From positions 319,761 through 383,760 of the forward strand of contig CAVSFR010000006.1 in assembly GCA_963727215.1 (NCBI GenBank): DNA of 64,000 nucleotides. Direction: 5' to 3'. The stretch is from an uncultured Actinomycetota bacterium. GTDB taxonomy: Bacteria > Actinomycetota > Actinomycetes > Propionibacteriales > Propionibacteriaceae. The stretch's first letter is position 1; each line of letters starts with the position of its first letter. The notes below the pieces were generated by a model. That model searched no databases. It saw only the letters and a program-made list of their open reading frames with translations, and was not told the origin of the DNA. Position numbers and translations under genes: made by a program. Below, piece by piece: positions 17,217-60,126 of the stretch.

Positions 17217-19418
17217 ATGCATCCCCTCGACGCCTTCACCCGCCGCTCCCTCTCCGACCTGTCAGCGCCGGTGGTTGCCCCGGCGACCACGGACGCTGAC
17301 AACTCGGTGGCGGGCGGGTGGTGGGAGGCGTTGTGGGGGGCGCAGGTGACCAGCCGGCACCTGGACTTCGTGGCCCGCGAGCTGCAGGCCGAGGGCGAGG
17401 GCTTCTACACGATCGGCTCGGCCGGGCACGAGGCGAACGCCCTGGTGGCGGCCGCGCTGCGGCCGAGCGACCCGGCCTTGCTGCACTACCGCTCCGGCGC
17501 CTTCTACGTGGCGCGCGCGGCGCAGGTCCCCGGCAGCACGCCGGTGCGCGACGTGCTGCAGGGGCTGATGGGGCTGGCCGACGAGCCGATCGCGGGCGGC
17601 CGGCACAAGGTGTTCGGCCACGCCGGTCTGGGCGTGATCCCGCAGACCTCGACGATCTCCTCCCACCTGCCGCGCGCGGTCGGCCTCGCCCTGGCCCTGC
17701 ACCGGGCCTACCGGCTGGGCGTCGCCTGCCCCTGGCCCGCCGACGCCGTGGTGGTCTGCTCCTTCGGTGACGCCTCGGCCAACCACTCGACCGCGGCCGG
17801 GGCCGTCAACACCGCCCTGAACGCCGCGTACCGGGGGCTGCCGGTCCCGCTGCTGCTGGTCTGCGAGGACAACGGCTACGGCATCTCGGTGCCGACGCCG
17901 GGCGGCTGGATCGAGGCCGCGTACGGCTCCCGGCCCGGTCTGGACTACGTGGCCGCGGACAGCTCCGACCCCGCCACCGCCCGCGCCGCCGCCGCCGCTG
18001 CGGTCGAGACCGTGCGGACGGCGCGCCGGCCCGTCTTCCTGCACCTGCGGACGGTTCGCTTCCTCGGCCACGCCGGCAGCGACGCGGAGGTCACCTACCG
18101 GACACCACGCACGATCGAGTCCGACTACGGTCGCGACCCCCTGCTGGCCACCGCCCGGGTGCTGGCCGTCGCCGGCCTGTCCGGCGCCGAGCTGCTGCGG
18201 CGCTACCTGGAGCTCCGCGCCGAGGTGGACGCCGAGGTCGTACGGCTGCGCGGCGGCGCCCGGCTCACCTCGGCCCCCCAGGTGATGGCCCCGCTCGCCC
18301 CGCGCCGTCCCGACCTGGTCGCCGAGCACGTCCGGAGCGCCTCGACGGCGGCATCGGAGGTCGCGTCGGAAACTCGTGGCGCCACCAGCAGGACGCTCGC
18401 GGAGTCCATCAACGCCACCTTGGCCGAGCTGCTGGCCGCGGACCGGCGAGTGCTGGTGTTCGGCGAGGACGTCGGCATCAAGGGCGGGGTGTACGGGGTG
18501 ACCGGCGGACTGGCGCGCCGCTTCGGCAGCGCCCGCGTCTTCGACACCGTGCTGGACGAGCAGTCGATCCTCGGCCTGGCTCTCGGCGCTGGGCTGGCCG
18601 GACTGGTCCCGGTGCCCGAGATCCAGTACCTGGCGTACCTGCACAACGCCGAGGACCAGCTGCGCGGCGAGGCCGCCACCCTGTCGTTCTTCTCCTCGGG
18701 AGCGTTCCGCAACCCGCTGGTGGTGCGGGTCGCCGGCCTGGCCTACCAACGCGGCTTCGGCGGCCACTTCCACAACGACAACGCCCTCGGCGTGCTCCGC
18801 GACATCCCCGGTCTGGTGCTCGCCTGCCCGAGCCGGGGCGACGACGCGGCCGCCATGCTGCGGACCTGCGTCGCAGCCGCGGCCACCGACGGCACGGTCG
18901 CGGTGTTCCTCGAGCCCATCGCGCTCTACCACCGCCGCGACCTGCACGAGGCCGGCGACGGCGGCTGGCTGACCGGCGACGAGGCCGGTCACGTACCCCT
19001 CAGCTCCGCCCGGCTGCACCCGGCACCCGGCACCCAGACCCCGGACCTGGTGCTGGTCACCTTCGGCAACGGCGTCCCGATGAGCCTGCGGGTGGCCCGT
19101 CGGCTGGCGGGTCAGGGTGTGGCCGCGGCCGTGCTGGACCTGCGCTGGCTGAGCCCGCTGCCGGTCGCGGACGTCCTCGCTGCGGCCTCGACCGCCGGCC
19201 GGGTGCTGGTGGTCGACGAGACCCGGCACAGTGGTGGCGTCGGCGAGGGCGTCGTGACCGCGCTGGTCGAGCACGGCTTCTCCGGACCGGTGGCCCGGGT
19301 GAGCAGCGCCGACTCGCTGGTCCCGCTGGGTGCGGCCGCCCAGCACGTGCTGCTGGGCGAGGACGAGATCGAACGTGCCGCCATCGCGGTGGCGGCCAAG
19401 GAGAGGGAGAGACGATGA
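17217..19418 (+). CDS. Fused alpha/beta TPP-dependent 2-oxoacid dehydrogenase E1
   Basis: YTIGSAGHE, TPP motif FGDAS...EDNGYGIS, GHAGSD, beta-domain FGEDVGIKGGVYGVT, FDTVLDEQ, EIQYLAYLHNA. Confidence 0.88.
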   Translation: MHPLDAFTRRSLSDLSAPVVAPATTDADNSVAGGWWEALWGAQVTSRHLDFVARELQAEGEGFYTIGSAGHEANALVAAALRPSDPALLHYRSGAFYVARAAQVPGSTPVRDVLQGLMGLADEPIAGGRHKVFGHAGLGVIPQTSTISSHLPRAVGLALALHRAYRLGVACPWPADAVVVCSFGDASANHSTAAGAVNTALNAAYRGLPVPLLLVCEDNGYGISVPTPGGWIEAAYGSRPGLDYVAADSSDPATARAAAAAAVETVRTARRPVFLHLRTVRFLGHAGSDAEVTYRTPRTIESDYGRDPLLATARVLAVAGLSGAELLRRYLELRAEVDAEVVRLRGGARLTSAPQVMAPLAPRRPDLVAEHVRSASTAASEVASETRGATSRTLAESINATLAELLAADRRVLVFGEDVGIKGGVYGVTGGLARRFGSARVFDTVLDEQSILGLALGAGLAGLVPVPEIQYLAYLHNAEDQLRGEAATLSFFSSGAFRNPLVVRVAGLAYQRGFGGHFHNDNALGVLRDIPGLVLACPSRGDDAAAMLRTCVAAAATDGTVAVFLEPIALYHRRDLHEAGDGGWLTGDEAGHVPLSSARLHPAPGTQTPDLVLVTFGNGVPMSLRVARRLAGQGVAAAVLDLRWLSPLPVADVLAAASTAGRVLVVDETRHSGGVGEGVVTALVEHGFSGPVARVSSADSLVPLGAAAQHVLLGEDEIERAAIAVAAKERERR
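17254..17307. repeat. 54-bp palindromic element (CAGCG subtype), in frame inside the E1 CDS
   Basis: CCGACCTGTCAGCGC-CGGTGGTTGCCCCGGCGACCACGG-ACGCTGACAACTCGG; same length, arms and interior motif as 55042-55095. Confidence 0.85.
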
Positions 19419-35874: not shown

Positions 35875-35928
35875 CCGACTTGTCAGAATCCAGTTGTCCT
35901 ATGGGACAACTCAGTTCTGACAAGTCGG
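35875..35928. repeat. 54-bp palindromic element (CAGAA subtype), upstream flank of cassette 1
   Basis: Perfect 14-bp arms CCGACTTGTCAGAA/TTCTGACAAGTCGG plus inner AGTTGTCC/GGACAACT stem. Confidence 0.95.
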
Positions 35929-36007
35929 TATCCACAGGTGGCGACGTGTCGGGTCGCCATCCACAGATTCCCCCAGGGCCTCGCAACGGCTGCCCTCGTT
36001 CACCACC

Positions 36008-36985
36008 GTGGTCGCCATGCGTCGCACGCCAAAGCCTCCCGCTGAGCTCGTCCATCTTGCCCACTGCCAGCAACAGGTCCTCACCCGGTCACAGCTCCGG
36101 CAGATCGGGCTGAGCCAAGTAGAGATCCGTGCCCAGATTGCGGCCCAGCGCTGGACGACCTGGGGCGCCCACGTGGTCGTGCTGCACAACGCAGAGCCCT
36201 CCCGGCCCCAGCTGATGTGGGCCAGCACTCTCGACGCCGGGCCGCCGACCGCCCTGGTCAGCCACACGGCGCTCGAGCTCGCGGGCTTCCGGGACTTCGC
36301 GCGGGCTGCGGCGGCAGTCCACCTCATGGTGCCGCGCGGCGCGAAGGTGAACCGCCACCCTTCCGTGGTCATCCACGAGTCTCGACGGGTGCAACCGGAA
36401 TTCCACGTTGAGAGGCAAGGGCTGCCCTGCACCGCAACCCCGCGCTCAGCTCTCGACGCGGCGGCCTGGCAATCGTGGCCGCGCTTCGCCTGCGCGATCG
36501 TCGCCGCAGTCGTGCAACAGCGGCTCTGCACCCCTGCGCAGCTCGACGACGCTCTGGCCATCGTCGGACGCATCAGGCACAAGGCCTATCTGCGCGAAGC
36601 TCTTCGCGACATCGCGGGCGGCGCGGAAGCCTTGAGCGAGCTGGACCTGGCCAAGGTGTGTCGTCGGTTCGGCCTGCAGCCCCCCTATCGACAGGTGCGA
36701 CGGCTCGACGCAAACGGTCGACGGCGCTACCTCGACGCCGAGTGGGTGCTTCCGAACGGCGAGCGGGTGCTGCTCGAGGTCGACGGCGCGCACCACGTCG
36801 AGGTGGAGCACTGGCAAGAGGACATGCAGCGCGAGCGGGCGCTTGTCGTCACCGGCTCCCGGGTGTTGCGAGCAACAGCCATGGAGCTCCGCCTCGAGCC
36901 CGCCTCGGTGGTCACCGACCTCGTCCGCGCCGGCGTACCCCGACTTGTCAGAACTCAGTTGTCCCAGAGGGCAACTGGTTTCTGA
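36008..36985 (+). CDS. AbiEi-like wHTH + DUF559/Vsr-like PD-(D/E)XK nuclease protein
   Basis: QQQVLTRSQL N-terminus, TATPRSALD, RYLDAEW, LEVDGAHH, DMQRERAL..G.RVLRAT; stop TGA inside the downstream palindrome. Confidence 0.85.
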   Translation: MVAMRRTPKPPAELVHLAHCQQQVLTRSQLRQIGLSQVEIRAQIAAQRWTTWGAHVVVLHNAEPSRPQLMWASTLDAGPPTALVSHTALELAGFRDFARAAAAVHLMVPRGAKVNRHPSVVIHESRRVQPEFHVERQGLPCTATPRSALDAAAWQSWPRFACAIVAAVVQQRLCTPAQLDDALAIVGRIRHKAYLREALRDIAGGAEALSELDLAKVCRRFGLQPPYRQVRRLDANGRRRYLDAEWVLPNGERVLLEVDGAHHVEVEHWQEDMQRERALVVTGSRVLRATAMELRLEPASVVTDLVRAGVPRLVRTQLSQRATGF

Positions 36986-36993
36986 CAACTCGG
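36940..36993. repeat. 54-bp palindromic element (CAGAA subtype), downstream flank of cassette 1
   Basis: CCGACTTGTCAGAA-CTC-AGTTGTCC-CAGA-GGGCAACT-GGT-TTCTGACAACTCGG. Confidence 0.93.
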
Positions 36994-51240: not shown

Positions 51241-51304
51241 GCCGCGATCCCCCCGCCTGGTCGGCGGTGGCCGCCACGGAGGCTGACAGCTCGGGGTTCG
51301 GAGC

Positions 51305-53729
<2,425 letters not shown>

Positions 53730-53879
53730 CGGTCCAGCCCGTCGGCGGCCCCGAGGGTCACCGGTCTGTGGTCGTCGGCGTCCTCGGCTCCGGCGAGGGA
53801 GCTCTCGAGCTGGGGCAGGGGGATGTGCACCGGGCCAGCGTAATGAGGGCGGGTGACAGTCGCGACCCGCTCGGCTTGG

Positions 53880-55038
53880 ATGAACGTCGTGGCCACCCCG
53901 ACCGACGCGCCCGCGACACCACCGTCCCCGCACGCCCGCACCTTCCCCGACGGCGTGCCGGTGCTGGTGGACGCCGCGGTCGGGCTCACCCTCCGGCCGC
54001 TGACACGTGCGGACCTGCCGGCGGTGGTCGAGCAGTGCCGGGACGCCGAGATGATCCGCTGGACCACCGTGCCCACGCCGGACGGCGGGTACGGGCTGGC
54101 CGACGCCGAGGCGTTCCTCGGCGTGACCGCCGAGGGCTGGCGCAGCGGGCAGCGGCTGGGCTGGGTGATCGAGGACCGACCGGGACGCTTCTGCGGGACG
54201 ATCGACCTCCGGGTCGAGGCCGGCGGGGTGGCCGAGGTGGGGTTCGGCCTGCACCCGGCCGGACGCGGTCAGCACCTGATGAGCACCGCCGTCCGGCTGG
54301 TCCGCGACCACGCCTTCGACGTCCTCGCGCTGCGGGCCTTGCGCTGGCGGGCCGCGGTGGGCAACTGGGGGTCGCGCCGGGTGGCCGCCGCGGCGGGCTT
54401 CGCCGTAGAGGGCAGCGTCCGGCTGCTGCTGGAACAGCGCGGCGAGCGGTGCGACGGCTGGATCGCCACCATGACCAGCCGACGACCCGCGCGCCCCCGT
54501 CGGTTGGCTGGACGTCCCGCTGCTGGTCGGCGCCGGGCTGCGGCTGCGGCCGTTCACCGAGGCGGACGCCCTACGGATCGTCGAAGCCTGTTCCGACCCG
54601 CGTACGCAGCACTGGCTGTCCTCGCTGCCCCGCCGCTACACCGTCACCGACGCCCTCGGCTACGTCGAGTCGACGCGGGAGAACGCGGCTCGCCGGACCG
54701 GCGTCGCCTGGTGCGTCGCGGACGCCGCCGACGACCGGTGTCTGGGCTCGGTCAGCCTCGAGGGCTTCGGCGGCTACGACCGACGCGCCGAGATCGGCTA
54801 CTGGAGCCACCCGGACGCGCGCGGCCGCAGCGTGACCACCGAAGCCGTCCGACTGGTCACCTCCTACGCAGAGTCCGGCGGGCTGGTCGACTCGCTGCTC
54901 ATCCGGGCGGCCGGGGGCAACGTCGCGTCCGCGCACGTCGCCCGGGCAGCCGGCTACCGCGAGGTCGGCGTCCTGCCGCACGCCGAGCCCCTCGGCGACG
55001 GCTCGGTGGACTCCCTCGTCCTCTACGCCCGCCCCTAA
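53880..55038 (+). pseudogene. Tandem RimJ/RimL GNAT acetyltransferase split by a +1 frameshift near 54477-54480
   Basis: Domain 1 read in frame to WIATMT; the frame then shifts by one base to DDPRAPVGWLDVP..LRLRPF..EIGYW..YARP; pseudogene or sequencing error. Confidence 0.8.
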
Positions 55039-55041
55039 TCC

Positions 55042-55095
55042 CCGACTTGTCAGCGTGAGTGGCTGCCCGAGCGACCACCCACGCTGACAAGTCGG
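55042..55095. repeat. 54-bp palindromic element (CAGCG subtype), downstream flank of cassette 2
   Basis: Perfect 15-bp arms CCGACTTGTCAGCGT/ACGCTGACAAGTCGG. Confidence 0.95.
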
Positions 55096-56024
55096 GTCTG
55101 TCGGACGCCTACCGCAAGGAGGTCAGACGCAATGGGGCCGGGATCGAGCCGAACCTCCAGGTTGGTGGCGCGCAGGACCTTACGGCCGGAGATCACCACA
55201 CTTCGTTCCCGACGCATGTCGGCCTCCCACTGGCTGACCTCCATGTGGTGCCGCCCGTCCACCTCGAGCACGACCACACCGCCGCCAGGAAGCTCCCACT
55301 CGCAGTCCAGGTACCGGGCTCGCCCGTCGCTCCCGCAGCGCGCGACTTGCCGCCGTGGCAGCTCGAGGCCGAACCGACGGCACATGCGGCCCACCTCCAG
55401 CTCACCGGAGGCGGTCGCCCCGGTCTCGATGTCGGCCAGCGCGAGCCGTAGGTAGGCCTTGTGCCTGATTCGGCCGATGTGCTCCATCGCCTCCTCGAGC
55501 TGCGTCACGGTGCACAGACGCTGCTGCACGACCGCTGCGACCAAAGCGCAAGCGAAGCGCGGGAATGGCTGCCAGGCGGCCGCATCGAGAGCCGATCGTG
55601 CCGTTCCCGTCCTGGGCAGCCCTCGGCTCCAGGTGCCGTCGTTGCTGCGGAGCCTGCGCGACTCGTGCACCCGAACGCCCGGCAGGGGTGCCGACCGGGC
55701 TCCGCGGGGGATCACCAGGTGAATCTGCTCCGCCTCGCGCGCAAAGCTCGAGAAGCCGGCGAGCTCGAGGGCGGTGTGGCCGGCGAGCAAGGCCGGCGGA
55801 CCCGCGTCCAGAACCGCCATCCACATCAGCTGAGCTCGGGAGGGCGGGCCGTTGCTCATCAGGACCAGGTGGTCCCCCCATGTCGTCCACCGTTCGCCCT
55901 CGACCTGCGCCCGCACGAAGCCGCGCGTCATCGAGTAGCACCGGAGCCAGTCACGTCGGAGCACGCCATGGGCCAAGCCCGCCCGAGCGAGGGCACGTGC
56001 ATCGTTCCAGCAGTCGACAGCCAC
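55050..56024 (-). CDS. AbiEi-like wHTH + DUF559/Vsr-like nuclease protein, paralog of 36008-36985 (start inferred)
   Basis: Shares RWTTWG, LDAGPP, HTALELAGF, HESRR, RSALDAAAWQ, VAAVVQQRLCT, GRIRHKAYLR, RYLD.EW, LEVDG.HH; GTG 56024 gives near-identical length. Confidence 0.85.
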   Translation of the reverse strand: MAVDCWNDARALARAGLAHGVLRRDWLRCYSMTRGFVRAQVEGERWTTWGDHLVLMSNGPPSRAQLMWMAVLDAGPPALLAGHTALELAGFSSFAREAEQIHLVIPRGARSAPLPGVRVHESRRLRSNDGTWSRGLPRTGTARSALDAAAWQPFPRFACALVAAVVQQRLCTVTQLEEAMEHIGRIRHKAYLRLALADIETGATASGELEVGRMCRRFGLELPRRQVARCGSDGRARYLDCEWELPGGGVVVLEVDGRHHMEVSQWEADMRRERSVVISGRKVLRATNLEVRLDPGPIASDLLAVGVRQTRLVSVGGRSGSHSR

Positions 56025-56111
56025 GCAGAGACGATCAGGACGTCGACTCAAGATCTGCGCGCCGCGGGCCAGCCTGTGGACGGCTGAGGCACCCGCTCTC
56101 TCCTGTGGACA

Positions 56112-56165
56112 CCGACTTGTCAGCGTCCACGGCTGCCATCGCGACCACTGACGCTGACAAGTCGG
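56112..56165. repeat. 54-bp palindromic element (CAGCG subtype), upstream flank of cassette 2
   Basis: CCGACTTGTCAGCGT-CCACGGCTGCCATCGCGACCACTG-ACGCTGACAAGTCGG. Confidence 0.95.
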
Positions 56166-56195
56166 CCTTCCGGCCGGCGCGATAACGTTCGGGGC

Positions 56196-58435
<2,240 letters not shown>

Positions 58436-58439
<4 letters not shown>

Positions 58440-58489
58440 GTTGTCAGAACCTCAGCGGGGCTCTGACCCCCTGAGGTTCTGACAAGTCG
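58436..58489. repeat. Solo 54-bp palindromic element (CAGAA subtype) between convergent genes
   Basis: CTGAGTTGTCAGAA-CCTCAG..CTGAGG-TTCTGACAAGTCGG; contains both flanking stop codons. Confidence 0.9.
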
Positions 58490-59040
58490 GGCAACACCAA
58501 CGCGTCCACCCGCTCGGCGGGGCGCTGCGCCTCGACGTAGGCCCGCTCCTGCGGCCACCAGTCGGTCCGCCACCGTTCCAGGAGCTCGGTCGGGTCCCGC
58601 TCGGCGATGCGCCGCCGCCGCACCGGCTCGGGCACGTCCAGCCAGAGCGTGAGGTCCCAGGGCACCCCCAGCCGGACATCGGTGGCGGAGACCCCCTCCA
58701 CCACCACCGGTACGCCGGGCGGCACCTCCCGGAGGGGTCCGAGCATCCCGGTGACCAGGTCGGCCGGCCGGTAGCGGCCCGGTCGACCGGCGAGGAGCGG
58801 CGTCAGCACCTCTGCGACGAAGCGGTCCCGCTGCCAGGTCGCGACGTCAGGGTGGGCGAAGTCGTCGATCGCCAGCACCACTGCGTCGGCGAGCTCGGCC
58901 GCGACCCGCGCGGCCAACGTGCTCTTGCCGGAAGCGCCGAGTCCGTCGATCCCGACCCAGACCGTCCCGCTCGACCCGAGCAGCCGGCCACTCACCCACT
59001 GCGGCGCCTCATCCAGGCTGATCCGAGCGGCCACGCCCAC
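58444..59040 (-). CDS. Uridine kinase-like P-loop protein
   Basis: [24 protein letters not shown]...ERAY. Confidence 0.75.
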
Positions 59041-59139
59041 CTCCGGTGAACCCCGACGGCGCCGGGATTGCTAGCGTCACCCTACGAAGACCGCACCACT
59101 CTCCGCACAGGTCTGCGTGGAGTAACCCGAGGAGCGCAC

Positions 59140-60126
59140 GTGAGCACACCCGTCAAGGTCGCCGTCACCGGAGCCGCCGGCCAGATCTGTTACAGCCTGC
59201 TGTTCCGGATCGCGAGCGGCGCGATGCTGGGCCCGGACACCCCCGTCGAGCTCCGGCTGCTCGAGATCACACCGGCCCTCAAGGCGCTCGAGGGCGTCGT
59301 GATGGAGCTCGACGACTGCGCCTTCCCGCTGCTCAGCAAGGTCGAGATCGGCGACGACCCGAATGTCGTGTTCGACGGCGTGAACCTCGCCTGCCTGGTC
59401 GGGGCCCGGCCGCGCAGCAAGGGGATGGAGCGCGGTGACCTGCTCGAGGCCAACGGCGCCATCTTCAAGCCCCAGGGCCGCGCGCTGAACGACCACGCCG
59501 CCGACGACGTCCGGGTCCTGATCACCGGCAACCCCGCGAACACCAACGCCCTCATCGCCATGAGCAACGCCCCCGACATCCCGCAGGAGCGCTTCAACGC
59601 GCTCACCCGGCTGGACCACAACCGGGCCATCGCCCAGCTCGCGGCCAAGACGAGCAGCGCGGTGACCGACATCTCCCGGATGACGATCTGGGGTAACCAC
59701 TCCGCCACCCAGTTCCCCGACCTCAGCCAGGCCACCGTGGCCGGTCGTCCCGCGCCTGAGCTGGTCGACCAGGACTGGATCGAGTCGCACTTCCTGCCGA
59801 CGGTGCAAAAGCGCGGTGCGGCGATCATCGAGGCCCGCGGCGCGAGCTCGGCGGCCAGTGCCGCCAACGCCACCGTCGACCACGTGCGCGACTGGGTGAA
59901 CGGCACTGCCGACGGCGACTGGGTCTCCATGTCGGTTCCGTCCGACGGCTCGTACGGCGTGCCCGAGGGGCTCATCTCCTCGTTCCCGTGCACCGTCGGC
60001 GGCGGCGCCTACACGATCGTGCCCGACCTCGGGATCGACGACTTCGCCCGCGGGAAGATCGACGCCAGCGTCGCGGAGCTGGCCGAGGAGCGCGAGGCCG
60101 TCCGTGCGCTCGGCCTGATCGGCTGA
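59140..60126 (+). CDS. mdh: Malate dehydrogenase
   Basis: [45 protein letters not shown]. Confidence 0.97.

Follow-up and report, generated by a model that had tools for sequence, protein, structure and literature searches.

Between a GNAT acetyltransferase gene and icd, the gene for a monomeric isocitrate dehydrogenase, a minus-strand gene of a Propionibacteriaceae genome is framed by two 54-bp palindromes, and a second such unit lies in the same 64-kb stretch of DNA (the window). The locus raises the question of whether gene and palindrome belong together, and if so, whether the encoded protein maintains the palindromes, is regulated through them, or merely resides among them. The unit at the GNAT-icd locus is called cassette 2 and its paralogous counterpart cassette 1.

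Layout of the cassettes in the window

The features are listed by window coordinates, with the strand where one applies.

55042 to 55095: distal (3'-side) 54-bp palindrome of cassette 2, CCGACTTGTCAGCGTGAGTGGCTGCCCGAGCGACCACCCACGCTGACAAGTCGG
56112 to 56165: proximal (5'-side) 54-bp palindrome of cassette 2, CCGACTTGTCAGCGTCCACGGCTGCCATCGCGACCACTGACGCTGACAAGTCGG
55050 to 56024, minus strand: cassette 2 gene, 324 aa, GTG start at 56024, AbiEi-like module and DUF559/Vsr-like nuclease domain
56074 to 56109, minus strand: leader of cassette 2 between start codon and proximal palindrome, with two TCCACAG motifs
35875 to 36993, plus strand: cassette 1, gene at 36008-36985, 325 aa, 57% identical, with palindromes of the CAGTTGTCC subtype
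17254 to 17307: solo palindrome of the cassette 2 subtype, differing at 8 of 30 interior positions
51253 to 51294: decayed palindrome of the cassette 2 subtype, intact at the same site in the closest relative (G017)
58436 to 58490: solo 55-bp palindrome of the third, 'GGGG' subtype, overlapping the icd stop codon and having no cognate gene in this genome

Both palindromes framing the minus-strand gene lie where the earlier note had placed them, and the gene, described there as a diverged paralog of about 324 aa, has 324 codons and is 57% identical to cassette 1 over 287 residues. The gene caller's product for it (P0002) has 293 aa and covers 90% of the query. The first base of the distal palindrome lies 3 nt past the GNAT stop codon, and the icd start codon is located 30 nt downstream of the proximal palindrome. 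The 16-nt outer parts of the two copies are identical, CCGACTTGTCAGCGT(G/C) ... (C/G)ACGCTGACAAGTCGG. With at most one mismatch, the 12-nt arm was matched 11 times in the window compared to 0.31 expected matches, and none of 100 shuffles reached 11. Single-strand folding of the palindromes at 55042 and 56112 gave -24.6 and -20.4 kcal/mol, corresponding to z = -8.2 and -6.7 against shuffled sequences.

The cassette 2 gene extends into the distal palindrome with its last 15 codons and its TGA. The stop codon in the distal arm, pointed out in the earlier note, is thus correctly located in cassette 2; as a meaningful feature it did not hold and is incidental across relatives, where the tail of the reading frame enters the palindrome in varying frames and the conserved protein stops at about ...GVP just ahead of it. 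Similarly, the flanks of cassette 2 are nearer to each other as direct copies (9 mismatches, against 13 when inverted), as had been noted, and this does not extend to a general rule: the flanks of cassette 1 show 10 mismatches in direct and 5 in inverted comparison, and no consistent preference for either orientation was found among 52 cassettes.

In the leader of cassette 2, the two TCCACAG motifs are located at 56103-56109 and 56074-56080 (plus strand coordinates) with a spacing of 29 nt. A TCCACAG-like motif beside the proximal palindrome is also found in cassette 1 and in the genomes G017, G010, and G019, and a looser CCACA form in G023 and G016. These motifs are possibly an operator or promoter element. 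Consensus scans found neither a sigma-70 promoter nor a U-tract terminator, and no Rfam family was matched within the 64-kb window.

An AbiEi-like module joined to a DUF559-like nuclease domain

The cassette 2 protein consists of an AbiEi-like winged-helix and middle module (approximately residues 10-190) and a DUF559/Vsr-like nuclease domain (approximately residues 205-305). DUF559 is one of the large nuclease families without an assigned function. PADLOC models for AbiEi matched the N-terminal two thirds with E = 7.4e-14 for cassette 2 and 1.5e-18 for cassette 1. The Pfam DUF559 model (PF04480) scored 19.2 bits in cassette 2 and 22.7 bits in cassette 1 at a gathering cut-off of 20.6, and was matched at E <= 0.01 by 10 of 14 family members; the family profile matched the DUF559 structure 3HRL with E = 3e-4. 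The nuclease motif of cassette 2 is intact (D240...E254-V-D256-G-x-H-H260...D269..R272), and D240, E254, G257, H260, D269, and R272 show no variation across 14 sequences of 30-57% identity. With dN/dS of 0.05-0.30 among the cassette genes, the protein is under purifying selection. The AlphaFold model of the cassette 2 protein had a pLDDT of 80.7, and a Foldseek search of the PDB with the whole chain of this model returned no match at E <= 0.001.

Identity of the protein as a RAYT was considered and rejected: Pfam, NCBIfam, and PADLOC gave only DUF559, MTES_1575, and AbiEi, and these domain searches detected no Y1 transposase and no transposase domain of any kind. No AbiEii/DUF1814 toxin gene adjoins cassette 2, whose neighbors are the GNAT and icd genes. 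Among the best 120 of 424 relatives, the database names are 'hypothetical protein' or absent, with the exception of one McrA-type restriction endonuclease. Many of these 120 are located on contigs of 1-2 kb.

The palindrome family in the host genome

The host assembly (G000; 3.8 Mb, 71% G+C) contains approximately 38 recognizable palindrome copies with shared outer arms, and only two close paralogous cassette genes. Fifteen copies belong to the cassette 1 subtype with the CAGTTGTCC interior (mean of about 4 arm mismatches), five, and the decayed one at 51253-51294, to the cassette 2 subtype (GTGGTCGCC), approximately 16 to the more decayed 'GGGG' subtype without a cognate gene there, and three to other subtypes. 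For most of the solo palindromes, the distance to a stop codon is 0-21 nt, and many occupy the gap between two convergent genes.

In the earlier note, each cassette subtype was given one solo copy in the window. The copy at 17254 is truly cassette 2-like; the one at 58436 does begin with CAGAA, but its interior, CCTCAGCGGGGC, is not of the cassette 1 subtype, from which it differs at 18 of 30 positions. With this copy reaching over the icd stop codon, icd too has a palindrome at either end. A third candidate cassette, with palindromes at C6:607896 and 609026 (span to 609079), was found to frame a cysteine-synthase-like gene and was rejected.

Position-wise conservation was computed over 79 distinct flanking copies. 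In the TTGTCAG box (positions 6-12), positions 8-11 are invariant and the remaining ones vary in at most 3 of the 79 copies. Arm positions 13-23 use three to four types of Watson-Crick pairs and are 59-95% paired, and the centre tends to GCTATAGC.

Gene and palindromes occur together across actinobacterial families

Homologous loci were collected from species-representative genomes with a six-sequence alignment as the query. A palindrome was present on both sides at 61 of the 78 loci, which come from several actinobacterial families. In relatives from the genus, every homolog was flanked, with the outer box common to all and an interior specific to each, and homologs at 31-44% identity (Actinoplanes, Aeromicrobium, Nanopelagicales, and others) were flanked by quite different palindromes. 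The cognate palindrome of Actinoplanes, GATCTTGT...ACAAGATC, is dispersed 45, 149, and 8 times in three genomes with zero control matches; in a fourth Actinoplanes genome, the homolog has no flanking copies and the palindrome is absent genome-wide. The layout of a gene between palindromes is conserved across actinobacterial families, and the palindromes themselves are lineage-specific.

Within the genus, 41 genomes were sampled. All 15 gene-bearing ones carry 10-268 palindromes, and the 26 gene-less ones carry either 0-1 (19 genomes) or 4-55 (7 genomes), an association with a Fisher P value of 2.7e-6, uncorrected for phylogeny. At the family level, where 151 high-quality genomes were sampled, the six that encode close homologs each contain 8-39 copies, and those without contain 0-2 each, except for G082 with nine copies of a shorter, 38-nt variant. 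Genome G024, which is 99% complete, has palindromes and no detected gene; the contig with its GNAT gene breaks off in a palindrome, and the cassette may therefore be missing from the assembly. In the fragmented assembly G005, the abundant solo subtypes are unlike the flanks of its one truncated gene. Dispersed palindromes are confined essentially only to gene-bearing genomes.

Palindrome interiors co-vary with the DNA-binding module

Co-variation was computed on 40 intact cassettes. The interiors of the left and right flanks of one cassette differ by 0.19, compared to 0.57 between cassettes. The co-diversification of protein and repeat proposed in the earlier note was borne out as congruence between the two: protein distance and interior distance are correlated (Mantel r = 0.27, P = 2e-4, n = 40; the permutation is liberal for sequences related by descent), and in 31 of the 40 cassettes the cassette closest in protein ranks among the four with the most similar palindrome interiors. 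By domain, the partial r was 0.24 for residues 20-100 (P = 5e-4), a weak 0.12 for the middle domain, and 0.00 for the DUF559 domain (P = 0.5). The interiors co-vary with the DNA-binding module and not with the nuclease domain. Co-variation of a gene with its own flanks is partly expected from linkage alone; simple linkage would not predict a split between domains. The split fits a DNA-binding module that would read the variable interior and a nuclease domain that would handle the invariant part.

Loci L059 and L061 have identical flank interiors despite a dS of about 1.8. The flanking palindromes have changed less than synonymous sites and are under purifying selection. The closest relative, G017, contains 27 copies in two subtypes matching its two cassettes, and in both this genome and the host genome the main solo subtypes match both resident cassettes.

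Long residence of cassette 2 and turnover of other copies

Approximately 31 loci from different species share with cassette 2 the downstream two-domain GNAT gene, usually with ugd in between, and other loci share its upstream neighbor, which is icd or a gene named V. The cassette protein is 55-66% identical between these loci and the neighboring GNAT protein 55-68%; the cassette has diverged about as much as its neighbor, which speaks for long vertical residency. The cassette 2 locus is conserved across Propionibacteriaceae and ancient, and does not represent a recent insertion. The earlier note looked to relatives for empty GNAT-icd alleles; none exist as such, because the locus is ancient and conserved and was not recently filled. 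GNAT adjoins icd in none of 24 genus genomes, owing to the extra ugd gene there and to icd occurring in either orientation, and the ugd|V and ugd|icd junctions were compared instead. Exactly at the position where G023 has the cassette, the gene-less genomes G047 and G055 contain a solo palindrome; decayed remnants are present there in G002 and G013, and no remnant in G053, G052, and G007. The orthologue in G017 is a pseudogene.

Cassette 1 has a different history. Its whole palindrome-gene-palindrome unit is located between the convergent stop codons of an argE-like gene and add; it occurs only in the host genome and G017, and the argE/add site is empty in G046, G002, and G015. Whole-cassette movement has occurred at least once.

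The set of solo copies changes from one sister species to the next. Five copies of G017 are cleanly missing at the orthologous sites of the host genome, one of them with base precision, and one further copy is shared and decayed in the host. The base-precise filled site (L176) reads TGA-GTCCTA-[54 nt]-AAGA-GGGTGAG and the empty one TGA-GGGTGAG; at this single clean pair, neither a target-site duplication nor any other mechanistic signature was found.

Explanations of the association

Considering these data together, cassette 2 is probably a long-resident REPtron-like partnership between an AbiEi-Vsr nuclease and a palindrome that the nuclease most likely recognizes, a reading drawn from comparative sequence evidence. 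Four other explanations were weighed. Each of them covers a part of the data and fails on copy numbers, site positions, or the cross-family association.

The first is a selfish homing-type cassette, in which the palindrome-gene-palindrome unit would enter palindromes or convergent gaps by cutting and repair, with solo copies being mostly footprints of gene loss through recombination of the flanks, like solo LTRs. The insertion of cassette 1 as a whole between convergent stop codons is what such an element would produce, as are the solo palindromes of G047 and G055 at the cassette site of G023, the decayed remnants in G002 and G013, and the several gene copies that are pseudogenes; Vsr-like homing endonucleases also exist (family table in PMC3424549). 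However, one or two genes per genome stand against 8-268 palindromes at many unrelated loci, and the filled and empty states of L176 differ by about 64 nt and no cassette. Moreover, cassette 2 stays at one conserved locus and has diverged like its neighbor, which indicates residency and no repeated invasion, and complete palindromes flank the gene on both sides, so that it does not interrupt its own site. This explanation is rather unlikely.

An ordinary DNA-binding regulator or nucleoid protein is likewise an unlikely explanation. The palindromes would then be an operator and terminator regulon, the DUF559 domain would be inactive or otherwise employed, and nothing would be mobilized. The AbiEi-like module is of the type found in known autorepressors, whose binding sites are inverted repeats (PMC7319586), the conservation of the flanking palindromes and of the TCCACAG leader motifs resembles that of regulatory DNA, and the solo copies are placed where terminators sit. 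Against this, the sites are found behind stop codons and in convergent intergenic gaps, away from promoters, whole units of 54-64 nt are present or absent between sister species, and copy numbers, which span 8 to 268, drop to 0-1 in 19 of the 26 gene-less genomes. The nuclease motif is also invariant and under purifying selection.

It is very improbable that the palindromes are an independent repeat, that is, REP-like terminator elements spread by the host or by another enzyme, with the nuclease gene merely situated where they pile up. A palindrome pair does frame the unrelated cysteine-synthase-like gene (C6:607896-609079), icd is framed too, and seven genus genomes have palindromes and no detected gene. 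Flanking on both sides at 61 of 78 loci, some of them from lineages whose palindromes are quite different, and interiors that co-vary specifically with the DNA-binding domain argue the other way, and with about 38 copies in a 3.8-Mb genome the chance that both paralogs are flanked on both sides is negligible.

An AbiE-related defence or toxin-antitoxin module, for which the palindromes would serve regulation or act as decoys and to which the match of PADLOC AbiEi models to the N-terminal two thirds would point, is highly improbable, given the lack of an adjacent AbiEii/DUF1814 partner and a conserved housekeeping neighborhood that is no defence island.

Proposed mechanism and significance

In the favored partnership of nuclease and palindrome, the palindrome would be bound either by a symmetric dimer of the protein or in the form of a hairpin or cruciform. 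Recognition of the variable interior (positions 13-23) would fall to the winged-helix module, and the nuclease may act on or near the invariant TTGTCAG box or the GCTATAGC centre. A nick or cut would trigger repair-based copying, which could keep the copies alike, seed new ones in the gaps after stop codons, and now and then carry the gene along. The flanking copies may double as terminator and operator of the cassette gene.

More tentatively, AbiEi-DUF559 proteins and their palindromes might constitute a second, independently evolved intragenomic replicator comparable to RAYT-REPIN, a possibility that we put at somewhat below even. A fast-evolving winged helix would aim the Vsr-like nuclease at the palindrome interior, and cut-and-repair would multiply and homogenize palindromes after stop codons across actinobacterial genomes, with cassette moves and rearrangements such as the icd inversion at this locus as by-products. 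If this is true, the REPtron would have a counterpart in another phylum that relies on an unrelated nuclease, and such an arrangement would have evolved more than once; DUF559 would gain a concrete substrate, and the actinobacterial gene-end repeats that break assemblies and seem to mark rearrangement breakpoints would be explained. The window offers a test case, with two diverged protein-palindrome pairs in one cell and a third, gene-less subtype. A search of the full-text literature found no description of a gene-palindrome pairing of this kind, and DUF559 appeared in it only in a fold-family table (PMC3424549) and, in a table row, as a product name over-represented in predicted inversion targets.

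Comparison with known systems

The N-terminal two thirds of the cassette protein resemble the AbiEi antitoxins of type IV AbiE systems in matching AbiEi models. Inverted repeats are the binding sites of AbiEi proteins, which act as repressors of their own operon (PMC3985639, PMC7319586). In contrast to AbiE, the cassette gene adjoins no AbiEii toxin gene, its protein has a nuclease domain at the C-terminus, and its inverted-repeat sites are dispersed over the genome, where AbiE has them at one promoter only. With the DUF559/Vsr group, including the Vsr mismatch nickase and 3HRL, the protein shares the C-terminal D...E-x-D-G-x-x-H...D..R motif and the profile match to 3HRL. Unlike in Vsr, the domain is fused to a large DNA-binding module, predicted to be sequence-specific, and has no partner cytosine methyltransferase.

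Compared to the Vsr-like homing endonucleases (PMC3424549), the cassette gene lies outside introns and inteins. With regard to what characterizes homing endonuclease genes, its site is unsplit, cassette 1 has an empty allele, and the cassette 2 locus holds solo palindromes in gene-less relatives. As short, structured, dispersed repeats at gene ends, the palindromes are similar to MITEs, Correia/NEMIS, ERIC, and RPE elements. They differ from MITEs in that no target-site duplication was seen (one clean site), they have no linked transposase of any known class, and a dedicated, flanked gene travels with the palindrome family.

So far, REP/RAYT stands alone as a well-described example of a domesticated enzyme that lives alongside its own dispersed palindrome population. 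The likeness to RAYT/REP pairs that the earlier note had drawn holds as an analogy and not as membership, because the enzyme is not a RAYT. The REPtron relies on an IS200/IS605-like HUH Y1 transposase (TnpA-REP) and is proteobacterial, whereas the cassettes encode an AbiEi-like winged helix with a Vsr-like PD-(D/E)xK nuclease, reside in Actinobacteria, and have palindromes whose outer box is invariant and whose interior varies. In common with REPtrons and RAYT-REPIN systems, one or two gene copies lie between palindromic repeats that are dispersed mostly outside genes (Nunvar 2010; Bertels and Rainey 2011, PMC3116915; Ton-Hoang 2012), and like RAYTs, the gene stays long-term at a conserved locus with low copy number and vertical inheritance (bioRxiv 10.1101/2021.07.10.451892). 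The 54-bp palindrome, composed of two inverted 27-nt halves, resembles a REPIN hairpin, and as in REPtrons, the repeat populations accompany the gene and decay without it, and protein and repeat diversify together.

Gene order around cassette 2

The isocitrate dehydrogenase gene icd, beside the nuclease gene of cassette 2, is bounded by palindromes on either side both in the genome under study (G000) and in its closest relative, G017:

56196-58439, icd, between palindromes (whole span 56112-58490)

With respect to Y/mdh, conserved neighbours at 58444-60126, icd in these two genomes is reversed compared with genomes G007, G050, and G016, and its orientation in G024 and G009, judged from the upstream neighbour, is also opposite. 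On this gene order, icd looks to have been flipped between the two palindromes, an apparent inversion, but neither of the flanking copies is an obvious hybrid. In G016, the cassette is located at the 3' end of icd.

On the other side of the cassette, ugd lies between the GNAT gene and the cassette in almost all relatives but is absent there in G000, where the GNAT stop directly abuts the palindrome (55038-55042). The ugd orthologue of G000 is found on another contig, near its end (C5, 468232-469126). The absence of ugd from this gap, together with the orthologue on C5, therefore places a rearrangement breakpoint at the palindrome edge. In most relatives, both GNAT domains are encoded within a single ORF of ~400-410 aa; in G000 (53853-55058), they occupy separate frames (domain 1, 53853-55058; domain 2, 54478-55038), so that the gene is a frameshifted pseudogene here unless the sequence contains an error.

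Palindromes away from the nuclease gene

In two relatives without cassette 1, G019 (locus L192) and G022 (locus L201), solo palindromes of other subtypes were located 25-35 nt past the add stop codon, which means that this gene has been struck repeatedly at its 3' end. In G000, two copies of the cassette 2 subtype (window 17254-17307 and C10, 149082-149135) apparently lie within ORFs, not intergenically; both are 54 nt long, a number divisible by three. A cassette look-alike on C6 of G000 (607896-609079) was rejected, as its palindromes, of different subtypes and spaced by 1.13 kb, frame a PLP-dependent cysteine-synthase-like gene and no nuclease gene. G082, from another genus of the same family, carries a shorter palindrome of 38 nt, TTGTCAGCCCTACCCGCAATGACGGGTAGGGCTGACAA, in nine copies; it has the same TTGTCAG/CTGACAA box, and no nuclease homolog was found in this genome at E <= 1e-20.

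Leader motifs and distant paralogs

Immediately inside the proximal palindrome, on the 5' side of the gene, both cassettes carry a pair of TCCACAG motifs:

56074-56109, TCCACAG motif pair of cassette 2, 29 nt spacing
35931-35966, TCCACAG motif pair of cassette 1, 29 nt spacing

Related forms containing CCACA occur in G017, G023, and G016. The first motif copy in G010 and G019 is GTTATCCACAG, which includes the consensus DnaA box, TTATCCACA.

A distant paralog of the nuclease, ~27% identical, is encoded in G000 on C4 (530657-531660) with a different palindrome upstream (CAAGCAAGTGGATCCTCACG...), three more copies of which are located at C6:671027, C6:770315, and C9:257661. Two further distant paralogs in G000 each have a palindrome upstream. 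The C4 paralog and the CAAGCAAGTGGATCCTCACG palindrome may form a small second pair of gene and palindrome that resembles the cassettes in kind.
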